Shown in pieces: positions 3,468-11,093 of a DNA stretch of 64,000 nt; the first letter of the stretch is position 1, and each line of letters opens with the position of its first letter. Origin of the DNA: Thermoplasmata archaeon (lineage in GTDB: Archaea; Thermoplasmatota; E2; DHVEG-1); NCBI GenBank assembly GCA_014894395.1, contig JADBLO010000051.1, positions 4,641 through 68,640 on the forward strand. The letters run 5' to 3'. The translations under genes and the position numbers were made by a program. The notes beneath the pieces are model-generated. The model searched no databases, had not been told where the DNA came from, and saw only the letters and a list, made by a program, of their open reading frames with translations.

Positions 3468-6257
3468 CTATGATTTCACGACGCCGACCGGTTTTTTAGG
3501 ATTTTTTTTTGCTGTTTTCCCACTATCTTTTTCATCGGAATCGTTGATTTTTTTGCCGCTCTCAAGGGTTCCATCGGTGAGCCCTTCATCAAGGAGAACA
3601 TCATACTCCACCTTGTATTCACCAGGGTCACCCTCTGAGAACTTGAAGTTTTTCTCTCGGCATAACGCAATCATCGGGTAATTATCCTTCAGGACGACAC
3701 CGTTGACCTTTGTCAAGTTCTTATCTTTCGCGATTTCAATGAGGTAATCCAGGAACTCAGAGCCGAGTCCTTGTCGCTGCCATTCATCTGTAACAACCAG
3801 CGCGAATTCTGCTTCATCAACTCGTGCAGGATCAAGAATAAGCCGAGCAACGCCAAGCAGTCGCTTTTTCCCGTTTTCCTCCATTTCAGCAACAATCCCA
3901 ATTTCCCTGTCGTAATCGATATTACAAAATCTCGTACGAACCTCATGGGGCGTGTCTTTGATAATTCTGAAAAATCGGAATCGCACGGTTTCTTCAGAGA
4001 ACGTCTTGAACATCTCCAGCCACATGTTTTCATCCTCTGGTTTTATCGGGCGGAGCAAAGCTTTCTTTCCATCTTTTAGTGTGATAGGTTTCATGTACTT
4101 GGTCGGATATGGTGTAATGATGAGATGCGGATGTTTCTCTGGCTCAGGATCAAGGATTATCCGCGCGTCCACCGCAATGAGATCATTTCCCTGCGGAATC
4201 AATGGGTTGATATCAACTTCTTTAATCTCAGGATGATCGATAAGCATCTGTGAAAACTTAATCATGGTTTCTTCGACTTTCTTCATATCAACAGGCGGGA
4301 CGTTCCTGAATCCTTTCAAAAGCTCATAGGCTTTTGTTTTTTCTATGATACGCTGTGCCAAGGTCTGGTTCAGAGGTGGAAACCCGATCGCTCGATCCTT
4401 AAACAACTCCGTGTAGATACCACCTAACCCAAAGAGAATCACCGAACCAAACACCGGGTCTTTTTTCGACCCAAGAATCAGTTCATACCCATAGTTCTTC
4501 ACCTGCTTCTGAATTGTTACTCCAAGAATCGTCGCATTCGGGACCTTTTCTTTCGCCTGTTTCGTCATCGCTCTGAATGCTGTTTTAACATCATCGCCAC
4601 AGCGTAAATCAAGGACGACACCACCGACATCACTTTTATGGCTAATCTGAGGAGATAATATCTTCATCACGATAGGGTACCCGATTTTCTCTGCTGCTTT
4701 CACTGCTTTGTTTTCATTTTCTGCAATCATCGGTGTTGCCGTAGTAATCCCATAGAGTTCTAGAAATGTCTTTGCTTCACTCTCATTGAGCAGGGTTCTT
4801 TTCTCTTTGGCTGCCGCATCTAAGATTTTTTTGATTATCTCTGTATGAGCCGGGGTTTGTATGTTTAACTCCTCAGGAGTCTCATATAATTGACCTAAGT
4901 GACGTTCATAATGATACAAATACATATAGGATTCAACCGCTTCATCAGGCGACGCGTAGGTTGGGATATTGTTCCGGTTTAGGATTTCTCGTGCGTGATA
5001 CACACTTGCCGCACCGATAAATGAGGTGAGAATTGGTTTGGTTGATTTACGGGCAATATCAACAAGCCGGTCTGCAAGTTTCTGCGGGTCAGCCATCACC
5101 TGTGGGACACACAAGATTAACAGACCATCGATGTTTTTATCCTCAAGACAAATCTCAATTGCTTTCTGATAACGCTCCTCGTCACCATCTCCGATGATGT
5201 CAACAGGGTTGCCATGACTCCAATGTGACGGCAACACTTTATTGAGTTTTTCTATAGTTTCCGCAGACAACTGTGCAAGCTTACCACCTTTCTCGATGAT
5301 TGAATCCGTGGCAAGAACACCAGGTCCTCCAGCATTGGTCACAATCGCAATGTTCGGTCCCATCGGACGCGGTTGTTTCGCAAGAATAGAGGAGCAATTG
5401 AATAAATCCATGATATTCATAACACGGACAACACCAGATCTTCGGAATGCAGCATCATAGATGACGTCTTCACCGGCAAGAGCTCCTGTATGGGACGCGG
5501 CTGCTTTTGCTCCTTCTTTGAACCGACCGGATTTAATCACAATAATCGGTTTTGCGCGCGCGAACGCTTTCGTCGCACTCATGAACTTCCGTGCATCTGT
5601 AATCGATTCGATATACAGAACAATGCTTCGGGTGTGAATGTCCATCCCAAAGTAATCAATTAAATCACCGAAATCAACATCTAGCATAGAGCCAACAGAG
5701 ACGAACGAACTAAAACCGACCTTTGCCGCCGCAGCCCAGTCAAGGATCGCACCACACACCGCACCACTCTGAGAAACCAATGCAATAGACCCTTTCTCTG
5801 GCATGGAACCTGCAAATGTCGCATTCAAATTCAGGTACGGCATGATGAAACCGACACAATTTGGACCGATGATACGCAACTCATATTTTTTCTTCAGATC
5901 TAACAGACGCTGTTCACGTGCGACACCCTCAGGCCCGATTTCCTTAAATCCAGCAGAAATAATGAGAATACCTTTGATGCCTCGTATCCCACATTGTTCG
6001 ACAACATCGCAAACAACAGTTGCTGGTGTTGCAATAATCGCCAGATCAACAACTTTAGGAACCTCATTGATGGATGGATAAGCTTGTACTCCTTGAACAC
6101 TTTCTCGTTTTGAATTCACTGGGAAAACAACACCATCATACCCAGATCCTATCAGATTTCGAAAAATCCTGTATCCAGCTGAGCCGATGGTTTCGCTTGC
6201 GCCAATCACTGCGATACTTTTTGGTTTGAAGACTTTATCAAGATTTGCACCATTCAT
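3468..6257 (-). CDS. ADP-forming acetyl-CoA synthetase (fused alpha/beta, NDP-forming acyl-CoA synthetase family) with C-terminal GNAT acetyltransferase domain (Pat-like architecture)
   Basis: N-terminal CoA-binding domain (SIAVIGASETIGSAGYRIF), CoA-ligase domain with phosphohistidine motif AAASHTGALAG, and ATP-grasp with SPQISHKSDVGGV. C-terminal GNAT with the acetyl-CoA motif WQRQGLGSEFL. Start placed at MNGANLDKV (6257), which has GGAGGGA 7 nt upstream; the longer ORF to 6314 has no RBS. Confidence 0.85.
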   Translation of the reverse strand: MNGANLDKVFKPKSIAVIGASETIGSAGYRIFRNLIGSGYDGVVFPVNSKRESVQGVQAYPSINEVPKVVDLAIIATPATVVCDVVEQCGIRGIKGILIISAGFKEIGPEGVAREQRLLDLKKKYELRIIGPNCVGFIMPYLNLNATFAGSMPEKGSIALVSQSGAVCGAILDWAAAAKVGFSSFVSVGSMLDVDFGDLIDYFGMDIHTRSIVLYIESITDARKFMSATKAFARAKPIIVIKSGRFKEGAKAAASHTGALAGEDVIYDAAFRRSGVVRVMNIMDLFNCSSILAKQPRPMGPNIAIVTNAGGPGVLATDSIIEKGGKLAQLSAETIEKLNKVLPSHWSHGNPVDIIGDGDEERYQKAIEICLEDKNIDGLLILCVPQVMADPQKLADRLVDIARKSTKPILTSFIGAASVYHAREILNRNNIPTYASPDEAVESYMYLYHYERHLGQLYETPEELNIQTPAHTEIIKKILDAAAKEKRTLLNESEAKTFLELYGITTATPMIAENENKAVKAAEKIGYPIVMKILSPQISHKSDVGGVVLDLRCGDDVKTAFRAMTKQAKEKVPNATILGVTIQKQVKNYGYELILGSKKDPVFGSVILFGLGGIYTELFKDRAIGFPPLNQTLAQRIIEKTKAYELLKGFRNVPPVDMKKVEETMIKFSQMLIDHPEIKEVDINPLIPQGNDLIAVDARIILDPEPEKHPHLIITPYPTKYMKPITLKDGKKALLRPIKPEDENMWLEMFKTFSEETVRFRFFRIIKDTPHEVRTRFCNIDYDREIGIVAEMEENGKKRLLGVARLILDPARVDEAEFALVVTDEWQRQGLGSEFLDYLIEIAKDKNLTKVNGVVLKDNYPMIALCREKNFKFSEGDPGEYKVEYDVLLDEGLTDGTLESGKKINDSDEKDSGKTAKKNPKKPVGVVKS

Positions 6258-6311
6258 TGTGCCTCCCTCCATAGAATGAGCTGTAGAGCACCGAAACGAG
6301 GAAAGTAGAAT

Positions 6312-6326
6312 CAATTATATAAGAGT
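6312..6326 (-). promoter_or_regulatory. candidate archaeal TATA box (TTATATAA) for the ACD-GNAT gene
   Basis: On the minus strand TCTTATATAATTG lies about 55-60 nt upstream of the ATG at 6257 and just downstream of the PFOR terminator T-run. Confidence 0.3.
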
Positions 6327-9944: not shown

Positions 9945-10058
9945 GAAAAACACCTCATGAGAAGAAAATCTCATATTTTTTCTAAATAAGCAATCGTAGA
10001 CCAACTAACCGGTATCCTGGGTCGATAGATAAATATTTGGTTATCAGGAGAAGACGGG

Positions 10059-11093
10059 TTAGAGGCTCCAGTAATCACTAAGGTATTGCTTTAGCTGCTG
10101 AACGGTGTTTTTTACTTCTTCCGGGTCGGTATCAGGTATTTCCTCTTCTTCTAAGAAATCATCATTCCCAAGGAGTCCACAGAAAATATTATAGTAGGAT
10201 TTAATGCAGGCCACACTATTATACCCCCCACCAAGGAGAACAAGAAGTTTCCTACAAGTCTCCTGGGAGAGCCCCGCAACACTTTTTGCCAGATGATAAT
10301 ACGTCTGATAGGTAAGATTCAGGTCAGCAAGTGGATCCGCATGATGGGTATCAACACCGGATTGATAGAGGATGATGTCCGGCTTGAATTGCCTGGTGAT
10401 TGGTGGGACGATTTCTTCAAATGCCATTCTATAGCTCGCTCCACCAGTACCGGGAGGAAACGGGAGATTGACGGTATAACCTGTAGCCTCTTCCCGACTG
10501 ATGGTTTCGACACTCCCGGTACCAGGATATAGGGTCCGTCCATCCTGATGAAACGACAGGTTCAAGACTGTTTTATCATCAATATAAATATCCTGGGTAC
10601 CGTTCCCATGATGGACATCCAGGTCAATGATCATGAATCGTTTCAATTTGTGTTTCTGTCGGAGATACTCAATGGTTATTGCGATATCGTTAAAGAAACA
10701 AAACCCTGAGGAGTGCCCCTTGCTTGCATGGTGAAAGCCACCGAGCGGATTTACCGCTACCTCATATCCTTCAAAGAGTTTTTCACCTGCAAACATACTT
10801 CCGCCAGTAGCAAGACTTGCCACCTCAAAAATCCCTTTTGGGGCAGGTGTATCTTCTGAAAGCCATCCACCGGTTTGACTGAGCTTTTTCACATGCTCTA
10901 CGTAGGATGGATCATGTACTTTGAGCAAGTCTGCTTCTGTTGCTTTTTTTGGTGTAAAAATAATAAATTCAGAAAGCACGCTTTTTTCTTTGAGAAACGC
11001 CATGGTGTTCTTTGGTTTATCACCAATGAGCGGATGATCGGTGCCCAGGTCATACTTGTTGTAATCCTCATGATAAACAATAGCTCGTTTCAT
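10059..11093 (-). CDS. histone deacetylase-superfamily protein (AcuC / acetoin-utilization / acetylpolyamine amidohydrolase-like Zn deacetylase)
   Basis: HDAC motifs GGFHHA, DLDVHHGNGT and GGGY; 345 aa from MKRAIVYHEDY (11093). The longer ORF to 11195 adds an unlikely 34-aa leader. Confidence 0.8.
   Translation of the reverse strand: MKRAIVYHEDYNKYDLGTDHPLIGDKPKNTMAFLKEKSVLSEFIIFTPKKATEADLLKVHDPSYVEHVKKLSQTGGWLSEDTPAPKGIFEVASLATGGSMFAGEKLFEGYEVAVNPLGGFHHASKGHSSGFCFFNDIAITIEYLRQKHKLKRFMIIDLDVHHGNGTQDIYIDDKTVLNLSFHQDGRTLYPGTGSVETISREEATGYTVNLPFPPGTGGASYRMAFEEIVPPITRQFKPDIILYQSGVDTHHADPLADLNLTYQTYYHLAKSVAGLSQETCRKLLVLLGGGYNSVACIKSYYNIFCGLLGNDDFLEEEEIPDTDPEEVKNTVQQLKQYLSDYWSL

Follow-up and report, generated by a model that had tools for sequence, protein, structure and literature searches.

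Metabolic acetylation in prokaryotes has its paradigm in acetyl-CoA synthetase (Acs), which Pat/CobB or AcuA/AcuC acetylate reversibly on lysine. In Salmonella Pat and Escherichia coli PatZ (YfiQ), an N-terminal module of about 700 amino acids (aa) that resembles NDP-forming acyl-CoA synthetases (ACD) precedes a C-terminal GNAT domain with a catalytic Glu and an acetyl-CoA motif, and the eraser, the sirtuin CobB, is encoded elsewhere. The ACD-like module of these proteins is reported to be inactive as a synthetase, the catalytic His being missing in SePat and in GNATs of types I and II (PMC3195501, PMC8556138; the PatZ structure paper agrees). In Bacillus subtilis, the acuABC operon, divergent from acsA, places a small GNAT writer without an ACD module (AcuA) beside a class-I-like Zn-dependent HDAC eraser (AcuC), and the AcuA/AcuC system controls acetyl-CoA synthetase (PMC8556138, PMC11532494). 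In archaea, GNAT writers with sirtuin or HDAC erasers are represented by Sulfolobus Pat/Sir2-Alba and Haloferax Pat1/Pat2/HdaI; these writers are single-domain GNATs, the common architecture among archaeal homologs according to a 2025 paper (PMC12607858), with no ACD fusion described. Conversely, the archaeal ACDs (P. furiosus ACD, Ca. Korarchaeum ACD1 (4xyl) and N. maritimus Nmar_0206 (8wzu)) contain no GNAT domain. We know of no pairing of writer and eraser genes in the Sulfolobus and Haloferax acetylation systems. Here we analyze a 64,000-nucleotide (nt) stretch of contig JADBLO010000051.1 (GCA_014894395.1, positions 4,641-68,640 of the forward strand; hereinafter, the window) from a Thermoplasmatota archaeon, in which three consecutive open reading frames (ORFs) on the minus strand encode an HDAC-family deacylase, a single-chain pyruvate:ferredoxin (flavodoxin) oxidoreductase (PFOR) and a 'Pat-like' fusion of an ACD with a GNAT domain.

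The best explanation of this locus, to which we assign a probability of roughly 0.55, is that the HDAC and ACD-GNAT genes form a two-gene eraser/writer pair for lysine ac(et)ylation. The writer would be a Pat-architecture lysine ac(et)yltransferase, with the GNAT domain fused to a full NDP-forming ACD module, and the eraser, which removes the mark, a lysine deac(et)ylase of the HDAC family, Zn-dependent and class-I-like. A first-pass annotation of the window, made from the sequence alone, had described three colinear genes separated by 114 and 135 bp; the ORFs and their coordinates were verified, and all three functional assignments held in Pfam and NCBIfam profile searches. The chosen starts (11093 for HDAC, 9944 for PFOR and 6257 for ACD-GNAT), all ATG, are backed by alignments of homologs, and with these starts the HDAC-PFOR and PFOR-ACD-GNAT gaps are 114 and 135 bp, the former value being start-dependent because the PFOR start is ambiguous (gene callers chose 9974, 9944 or 9923, for proteins of 1193, 1183 or 1176 aa).

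Gene neighborhoods were compared by aligning the fusion protein against one genome per GTDB species, which yielded 80 loci with 10-kb flanks; 46 Thermoplasmatota species among these were informative, with enough upstream sequence. In 40 of the 46 species, the ACD-GNAT gene has an HDAC gene upstream of it on its own strand, in line with the pairing of a deacetylase with a Pat-like protein that had been proposed at the first pass. The conserved unit is the pair, not the triplet that was proposed along with it: HDAC directly adjoins the fusion gene, at a distance of 77-176 bp and without PFOR, in 25 of the 46 species, and only 15 have PFOR in the intervening position, all in one derived clade (13 with near-identical spacing; three further contigs end inside or at PFOR). 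When the ORFs of the 40 positive loci were clustered, only the HDAC and fusion families were present in all 40, the next most common being [NiFe] hydrogenase genes (16-17 loci). The pair persisted down to 58-69% protein identity while all other neighbors turned over.

The Pfam domains of the fusion protein are, in order, CoA_binding, Succ_CoA_lig, Ligase_CoA_2, ATP-grasp_5 and Acetyltransf_1/3, with the GNAT match at residues 734-867, and the protein aligns end to end with the E. coli PatZ structures 9it0 and 9isq (residues 4-872 against PatZ 4-864, E 1e-168). An AlphaFold2 model of the full-length fusion, built on a 12-sequence alignment, was too poor for fold comparison (predicted local distance difference test score (pLDDT) 58, predicted template modeling score (pTM) 0.32), so that the fold was assessed by sequence homology to PatZ and ACD structures. 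The GNAT domain, which the first-pass proposal required to bind acetyl-CoA, contains both the P-loop and the catalytic Glu, and these are invariant or nearly so among orthologs. Its nearest characterized relatives are protein lysine acetyltransferases (KATs), namely, mycobacterial Pat, the S. lividans PatA domain and, at a greater distance, Sulfolobus Pat (3f8k). The Lys-rich C-terminal tail that follows is predicted to be disordered (pLDDT <50), occurs mainly in the triplet (PFOR-containing) clade and is absent or unrelated in pair-type orthologs; it could be an auto-acetylation substrate.

Unlike Pat and PatZ, the archaeal fusion keeps both catalytic histidines of the ACD, as the stand-alone archaeal ACDs do. 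H256 aligns with the SHTG motif of the structurally characterized active enzymes 8wzu (H256), 4xyl_A, 2csu and 9y43, at a site where PatZ has a four-residue deletion and no His, and H540 is the counterpart of H535 of Nmar_0206, the enzyme in which H256 and H535 are catalytic histidines with assigned roles (PMC11494057). Both residues are kept in all 80 related genome loci and are invariant in all Thermoplasmatota orthologs, so the absence of the phospho-histidine, to which the inactivity of the ACD in type I GNATs is ascribed, does not apply here. The fusion also has the five-subdomain ACD set, with CoA-binding, CoA-ligase and ATP-grasp modules, and E-values of 7e-155 to Nmar_0206 (8wzu), 1.6e-92 to ACD1 alpha (4xyl_A) and 4.5e-54 to ACD1 beta (4xyl_B), and its ACD-alpha part is the most conserved of the protein parts (77% identity to the window in the pair clade, vs 72% for GNAT and about 63% for HDAC).

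A search of 1.8 billion cluster representatives shows that the fusion of an ACD with a GNAT domain is a very common one. The 124 nearest fused representatives include 67 with both histidines, 19 with H256 only, 5 with H540 only and 33 with neither, that is, H256 has been lost in 38. Because loss appears to be easy where the domain is merely regulatory, strict retention of the histidines argues for kept catalysis. The ACD module thus probably still catalyzes the reaction acyl-CoA + ADP + Pi <-> acid + CoA + ATP, and residue retention together with purifying selection points to selection on this activity. The first-pass annotation had likewise ascribed ATP formation to this polypeptide; given the dead ACD of bacterial Pat/PatZ, that suggestion depends on the phospho-histidines, and their retention is compatible with it.

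The catalytic set of the HDAC-family protein is complete and invariant in 26 orthologs (H121/H122, D157, D159, H161, D248 and Y291), with D159, H161 and D248 as the Zn ligands, D157 as a K+-site residue and Y291 within the GGGY motif. Together with the PF00850 match, this substantiates its initial description as an HDAC-type Zn deacetylase. The protein has the hallmarks of the arginase-deacetylase fold, namely, the His-His pair, the Asp-His-Asp Zn ligands and the Tyr of xGGY, and its AlphaFold2 model is confident (pLDDT 88), with Foldseek TM scores of 0.85-0.90 to HDAC8 and the bacterial HDAH. The foot-pocket motifs are LGGFHH ('NPLGGFHHA' replacing RPPGHH) and GGGY, not RPPxHH/EGGY. The RPPxHH motif marks robust deacetylases and polyamine enzymes; enzymes whose activity extends to the removal of longer acyl chains typically have sequences of the GGGxHH type (Graf et al. 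2024, PMC11532494). By motif, the protein is class I/IV-like and can be called 'AcuC-like' loosely; membership in the acetylpolyamine amidohydrolase cluster is unlikely. Neither the PDB E-values, similar for class I and class II, nor the Foldseek search with this model, in which neither the two classes nor amidohydrolases of proteins and of small molecules could be told apart, refine this placement, and no NCBIfam model matched the protein. Only the conserved pairing with a Pat-type KAT suggests acyl-lysine on proteins as the putative substrate.

This pairing could also be accommodated by a small-molecule cycle, in which the GNAT domain N-acetylates a polyamine, an amino sugar or an amino acid, the HDAC-family enzyme deacetylates it, and the ACD re-activates the released acetate. 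GNATs are promiscuous, the structural neighbors of the HDAC include amidohydrolases that act on polyamines, propanil and dimethoate (PMC11532494), and the Joint Genome Institute (JGI) label of the protein is 'acetoin utilization protein AcuC'. We nevertheless consider such a cycle improbable given that the HDAC has the class I/IV-type LGGFHH and GGGY motifs in place of the RPPxHH seen in cluster 4 (polyamine) and cluster 1 (robust-deacetylase) enzymes, that the nearest characterized GNATs are protein KATs, and that the fusion aligns end to end with PatZ, a protein acetyltransferase.

The PFOR is a full-length enzyme: it scores 1926 bits against TIGR02176 (cut-off 911), covering model positions 2-1166 of 1167, and contains the Pfam domains POR_N, PFOR_II, POR, EKR, 2x[4Fe-4S] and TPP_enzyme_C. 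Its orthologs, with 76-79% identity, are present in pair-type lineages as well. In a pair-type relative represented by a single 365-kb contig, the PFOR ortholog (79% identity) is located at about 14-17 kb, beside rpoE, spt4 and ribosomal protein genes, and the HDAC/fusion pair at about 255-259 kb, that is, some 240 kb away. In a neighbor-joining tree built from the ACD part, the loci with PFOR all fall into one derived clade that branches from within the pair-bearing radiation, so that the HDAC and ACD-GNAT pair is the ancient unit and PFOR the later entrant. The promoter-like sequence upstream of PFOR (AAATATTTATCTAgCGAaCCc..ATACcGGTTA) is shared by all 15 triplet loci and the non-relocated PFOR ortholog in L083/L084, which indicates that the gene was relocated together with its promoter. 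New horizontal acquisition of PFOR was rejected, given that a pair-type genome has, at another location, a 79%-identical ortholog with this promoter motif. Judging from these comparisons, the PFOR gene between HDAC and ACD-GNAT was inserted later and in a single lineage, with a promoter of its own, and is not a core component; its own promoter, its relocation and its restriction to a derived clade preclude assigning it to the conserved module. In the clade ancestor, a complete PFOR unit (promoter, gene and terminator) would have moved into the HDAC-Pat spacer, near a [NiFe] hydrogenase cluster, creating, as a secondary development, a neighborhood for the conversion of pyruvate to acetyl-CoA and on to acetate and ATP. 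The two deepest loci of the triplet clade (L014 and L073) contain an additional 0.8-3.8 kb between HDAC and PFOR; the spacer therefore accepted further insertions.

These observations bear directly on the model put forward in the first-pass annotation, in which the HDAC, PFOR and ACD-GNAT genes constitute a self-contained acetylation switch on acetate fermentation, with PFOR as an integral part and PFOR and/or the ACD as targets. Triplet order and spacing are indeed kept in 15 species (and three contigs end at PFOR), PFOR makes the acetyl-CoA used by both the ACD and the GNAT domain, and in two bacterial loci (L056 and L076) PFOR is found within a few kb of an ACD-type gene. Against this, 25 species have the pair without PFOR, and PFOR is distant from it in the pair-type genome; its promoter predates the relocation, a T-rich terminator-like tract follows the gene, and the clade with the triplet is a derived one. 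There is no sign that PFOR or the ACD is the acetylated substrate, and the lineage has an AMP-forming Acs available for this role. We therefore view a three-component switch as distinctly unlikely and the idea of PFOR as a module member as corrected, and favor the two-gene eraser/writer pair.

Each of the three genes is preceded by a conserved promoter-like element (Table 1). Upstream of HDAC, the element AACCTTTTTAC, about 30 nt before the ATG, is kept as aACCTTTTTAc in the triplet clade; the position of the TATA-like box, about 30 nt from the ATG, implies that the HDAC leader is short or absent. Upstream of the fusion gene, the pattern cGATAnnnCTTATwTAA is found at an equal distance from the ATG in triplet loci and in PFOR-less pair loci, with 30 of the 40 loci matching a loose regular expression, and a Shine-Dalgarno sequence, GGAGG, is located at approximately 6266-6270. 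T-runs are present at a position equivalent to that of the T-rich tract in other triplet loci. A single three-gene operon was accordingly rejected in view of three conserved promoter-like elements and the T-rich tract, and transcription of the three genes from separate promoters is supported, that is, they would be co-localized, not one transcript. The TATA and T-run signals that the first-pass annotation had noticed in the gaps, with the same interpretation, are present and conserved in relatives.

The 5' leader of PFOR contains a hairpin, which we compared across the triplet clade (L003, L046, L047, L049, L073 and L014). The stem is kept by compensatory changes (ATGAGT/ACTCAT in L046 and GGAGAA/TTCTCC in L073 and L014), whereas the loops vary, and the hairpin is absent upstream of the non-relocated PFOR ortholog (L083). 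Because L003 and L047 have frame-breaking length changes, the hairpin is non-coding; for the same reason, with the stem kept, a coding N-terminal extension upstream of the PFOR ATG, as in the 1193-aa JGI calls, was rejected. The hairpin may be a translational or stability element gained with the relocation. An outer pairing between an A-run and a U-run could enclose the PFOR Shine-Dalgarno sequence.

Table 1. Features of the HDAC-PFOR-ACD-GNAT locus (coordinates refer to the window)
Feature	Position	Strand	Remarks
ACD-GNAT fusion ('Pat-like'), 929 aa	3468..6257	-	Pfam and NCBIfam
Lys-rich C-terminal tail, aa 886-929	3471..3602	-	9 K in 44 residues, poorly conserved
GNAT acetyltransferase domain, aa 715-885	3603..4115	-	PF00583, PF13302
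Acetyl-CoA motif A, QRQGLG	3762-3779	-	P-loop Q827-x-x-G830-x-G832 (consensus R/Q-x-x-G-x-G/A)
Catalytic Glu E817 codon	3807-3809	-	aligns with PatZ E809
ACD beta-type ATP-grasp part, aa 481-705	4143..4817	-	PF13549, 279 bits
Second catalytic His H540 codon, motif ISHKSD (HK(S/T)D)	4638-4640	-	invariant in relatives
ACD alpha-type part (CoA-binding, flavodoxin-like, ligase-CoA), aa 1-455	4893..6257	-	TIGR02717
Swinging-loop phospho-histidine H256 codon, motif AASHTGALAG	5490-5492	-	aligns with SHTG of active enzymes
ACD-GNAT promoter-like element GGCGATACTCTTATATAAT (TATA-like and transcription factor B recognition element-like)	6314..6332	-	about 60 nt 5' of ATG
T-rich tract, archaeal terminator-like	6351..6377	-	after PFOR stop codon
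Single-chain pyruvate:ferredoxin (flavodoxin) oxidoreductase, 1183 aa	6393..9944	-	TIGR02176
Hairpin ATGAGA-N6-TCTCAT, PFOR 5' leader	9957..9974	-	directly 5' of Shine-Dalgarno GAGGTG
PFOR promoter-like element CCAAATATTTATCTATCGACCCAGGATACCGGTTAGTTGG	10001..10040	-	kept in all 15 triplet loci
HDAC-family Zn-dependent deacylase, 344 aa	10059..11093	-	PF00850, 287 bits
TATA-like box AACCTTTTTACA	11121..11132	-	about 30 nt 5' of HDAC ATG
[NiFe] hydrogenase cluster (small subunit, large subunit, HycI protease, MvhD/FlpD)	11278..14646	+	context, divergent from HDAC gene

HDAC genes are linked to Pat-like genes in bacteria as well. In a Saprospiraceae locus (L055, 9020-12655), an HDAC gene lies 6 nt upstream of a Pat-like gene with the ACD histidines kept; this HDAC is of the RPPGHH/EGGY type, and its best PDB matches are class II enzymes. 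A metagenome scan anchored on it yielded, among the freshwater metagenome loci L086-L100, 14 informative ones (at least 46% identity), in 13 of which a Pat-like gene is found about 15 nt downstream of HDAC. These metagenomic Pat-like proteins lack both ACD histidines, SVLDW replacing SHTGA and QK replacing HK (11 loci scanned with regular expressions and 6 aligned; L086 ends before the region). The bacterial pairs (L055, L086-L098 and L100) share the gene order, HDAC followed by ACD-GNAT, with the archaeal pair but differ in the HDAC type and in the gaps of 6-15 nt, an arrangement that is operon-like by its spacing; we found no description of bacterial operons of a class-II-type HDAC and a Pat-like gene in the literature. 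Because two HDAC types pair with the Pat architecture in two domains of life, whether the ACD looks live or dead, the GNAT domain is the common denominator, and this dual, independent linkage supports a functional link and is as expected of a writer/eraser relationship.

The same observation speaks to the explanation that the adjacency is inherited synteny without a functional link. The genes have separate promoters and the adjacency has been lost in some species, as would be expected of mere synteny, but the pair has outlasted all other neighbors through extensive divergence, and a non-orthologous type of HDAC has been coupled independently, at short distances, to bacterial Pat-like genes. 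We regard mere synteny as very improbable.

A different functional scheme would make the fusion a catabolic, acetate- and ATP-forming ACD regulated by a GNAT domain that auto-acetylates it in cis, for example, on the Lys-rich tail, with the HDAC as the resetting enzyme. PatZ is itself reported to be regulated by autoacetylation. In the archaeal fusion, the ACD module and both histidines are very strongly conserved, the alpha-type part passes TIGR02717, the Lys-rich tail is present in the clade of the window, and PFOR has been recruited beside the gene. Conversely, the pair clade lacks the tail or does not conserve it, the same metagenome-assembled genomes (MAGs) encode a separate ACD subunit, and the link to HDAC does not rely on ACD catalysis because bacterial HDAC-linked Pat-like proteins have dead ACD domains. 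On balance, we consider autoregulation of a catabolic ACD unlikely and retain the interpretation of the HDAC and ACD-GNAT genes as an eraser/writer pair that modifies another protein.

By analogy with PatZ, the GNAT domain would acylate target lysines from acetyl-CoA and possibly other short acyl-CoAs, while the ACD module would bind or sense acyl-CoA and set the GNAT activity; if the ACD is live, one polypeptide would both sense and turn over the acyl-CoA pool. Acyl-CoA-dependent acylation would inactivate AMP-forming Acs, and possibly other enzymes, and the HDAC would reverse the modification. With Acs shut off when acetyl-CoA is plentiful, an ATP-wasting futile cycle between Acs and the ACD would be avoided. 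The AMP-forming Acs of the lineage is the most likely physiological target, again by analogy with the bacterial systems. Type I GNATs of the Pat kind acetylate AMP-forming acyl-CoA synthetases on a C-terminal Lys that is conserved among these. The classical Pat target is available because the same MAG lineage encodes it: AMP-forming Acs (K01895) is listed for the triplet-bearing MAGs M11B2D (L051) and 3300003432D (L003) (Zhou et al. 2018, PMC6461988), and in M11B2D it is among the most highly transcribed genes (11,166 transcripts per million; PMC6461988). A stand-alone ACD ATP-grasp subunit (K01905) is also listed for M11B2D and M9B2D (PMC6461988), so the fused ACD is not the sole ACD in these genomes.

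Several observations weigh against the interpretation of the locus as an eraser/writer pair with Acs as the target. In 6 of the 46 species, the HDAC gene is not beside the fusion gene, and no substitute deacetylase was found nearby upstream. Separate promoters for the two genes do not imply co-regulation of the pair. No gene for AMP-forming Acs was found in the window or near the pair in the 40 related loci, and given the stand-alone ACD subunit gene, the fused ACD need not be catabolic. The residues of PatZ that dock Acs are mostly not conserved: this holds for R395/Y398 and N227, and only K236 (PatZ K228) is retained. The fusion exceeds the cut-off of the ACD-alpha equivalog-domain model TIGR02717 by a narrow margin of only 1.5 bits (568.6 vs 567.15), and it falls far below those of the full-length ACD equivalog models (524 vs 1200 for NF045494 and 635 vs 1300 for NF045493), which also sets it apart from the archaeal ACDs. 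Small-molecule substrates are possible for HDAC-family enzymes, and sequence and fold are not decisive in this respect. Finally, the organisms are uncultured, and it is from sequence that we predict what the enzymes catalyze, that their substrates are proteins and which protein is targeted.

With regard to the described systems, the archaeal pair would combine a writer of the Pat type with an eraser of the AcuC type. It differs from Pat/PatZ in that its putative eraser is a Zn-dependent HDAC encoded next door, and from the acuABC operon in that the writer carries an ACD module and the genes have separate promoters; neither an AcuB-like gene nor acs is present in any of the 40 archaeal loci, so that an acuABC-type operon divergent from acsA is not represented among them. 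Our literature search identified no paper on archaeal GNATs fused to an ACD or on the pairing of such a fusion with an HDAC, in agreement with the initial impression that such a pair has not been described functionally, and a survey of archaeal gene fusions and fissions (PMC11237513) does not mention the ACD-GNAT fusion.

The remainder of the window is ordinary archaeal housekeeping sequence that encodes, among others, archaeal NMD3, GatD, aIF2-alpha and diphthamide synthase, and the Rfam and tRNA scans of the window produced no matches. The host is a Thermoplasmatota archaeon: the MAG GCA_014894715.1 carries identical proteins, a 98%-identical ortholog was found in an 'uncultured Thermoplasmata' MAG, and close relatives include the MBG-D/Thermoprofundales MAGs M9B2D, M11B2D, SM1-50 and 3300003432D. 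Hydrogenase genes of two different types are found near the HDAC-Pat pair in approximately 16-17 of the 40 loci, at varying positions. In one pair-type locus (L085), these genes occupy 15475-19951, and a LarA-like (lactate racemase family) gene, with its start 2 bp past the ACD-GNAT stop codon, is followed by a cupin gene; this arrangement (13816-15465) suggests that the LarA-like and cupin genes are lineage-specific co-transcription partners.

Beyond MvhD, an ORF of 171 aa (14833-15348, minus strand) encodes an N-terminal asparaginase domain only. The corresponding contig of GCA_014894715.1 (L001), otherwise identical, contains an rve-family integrase gene at 199-1581, in the region matching this ORF, which indicates strain-level variation or insertion of a mobile element. 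The same contig has an additional gene for a 192-aa RimL-like GNAT (15111-15689) between NMD3 and GatD, which is absent from the window (at about 1145-1148) and from L002, the flanking proteins being 98-100% identical. Farther downstream, an ORF of 817 aa (39495-41948, plus strand) encodes a Lys/Glu-rich, coiled-coil-like protein with a C-terminal helix-hairpin-helix domain, which accounts for the extreme purine skew at 40-42 kb; inside it, a 282-bp segment is perfectly duplicated in tandem (2.0 copies, 100% identical; 40226-40800), either recently or as an assembly artifact. At the window's 3' end, the plus strand is strongly A-rich because of a ribosomal protein operon (L3, L4, L2, S19, S3 and others; 50890-64000, plus strand).

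The retention of both histidines raises a further possibility, which we put forward tentatively and with less confidence than the pairing itself: a live ACD might be mechanically coupled to the GNAT domain, such that one tetramer turns over acyl-CoA and writes the same acyl group, with the class-I-like HDAC as the dedicated eraser, and the His-retaining form might be ancestral. If so, the acylation state of proteins would directly report the mass-action ratio of acyl-CoA, ADP and Pi to acid and ATP, and the dead-domain enterobacterial Pat/PatZ would derive, through repeated catalytic loss, from a His-retaining form that makes up about half of the nearest fused representatives.

The locus bears on two current statements, that archaeal KATs are commonly single-domain proteins and that the ACD of type I GNATs is dead. 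An abundant lineage of uncultured sediment archaea, Thermoplasmatota that include the MBG-D/Thermoprofundales MAGs, carries a His-retaining gene of Pat architecture beside an HDAC gene through long divergence. Three proteins, the HDAC, the ACD-GNAT fusion and the cognate AMP-forming Acs, make up a clonable test system in which it could be asked whether the 'regulatory' ACD of Pat evolved from a working enzyme and whether a single protein combines the activity of a writer with energy conservation, as well as how the flux of acetate and acetyl-CoA may be controlled in organisms relevant to carbon turnover in sediments.

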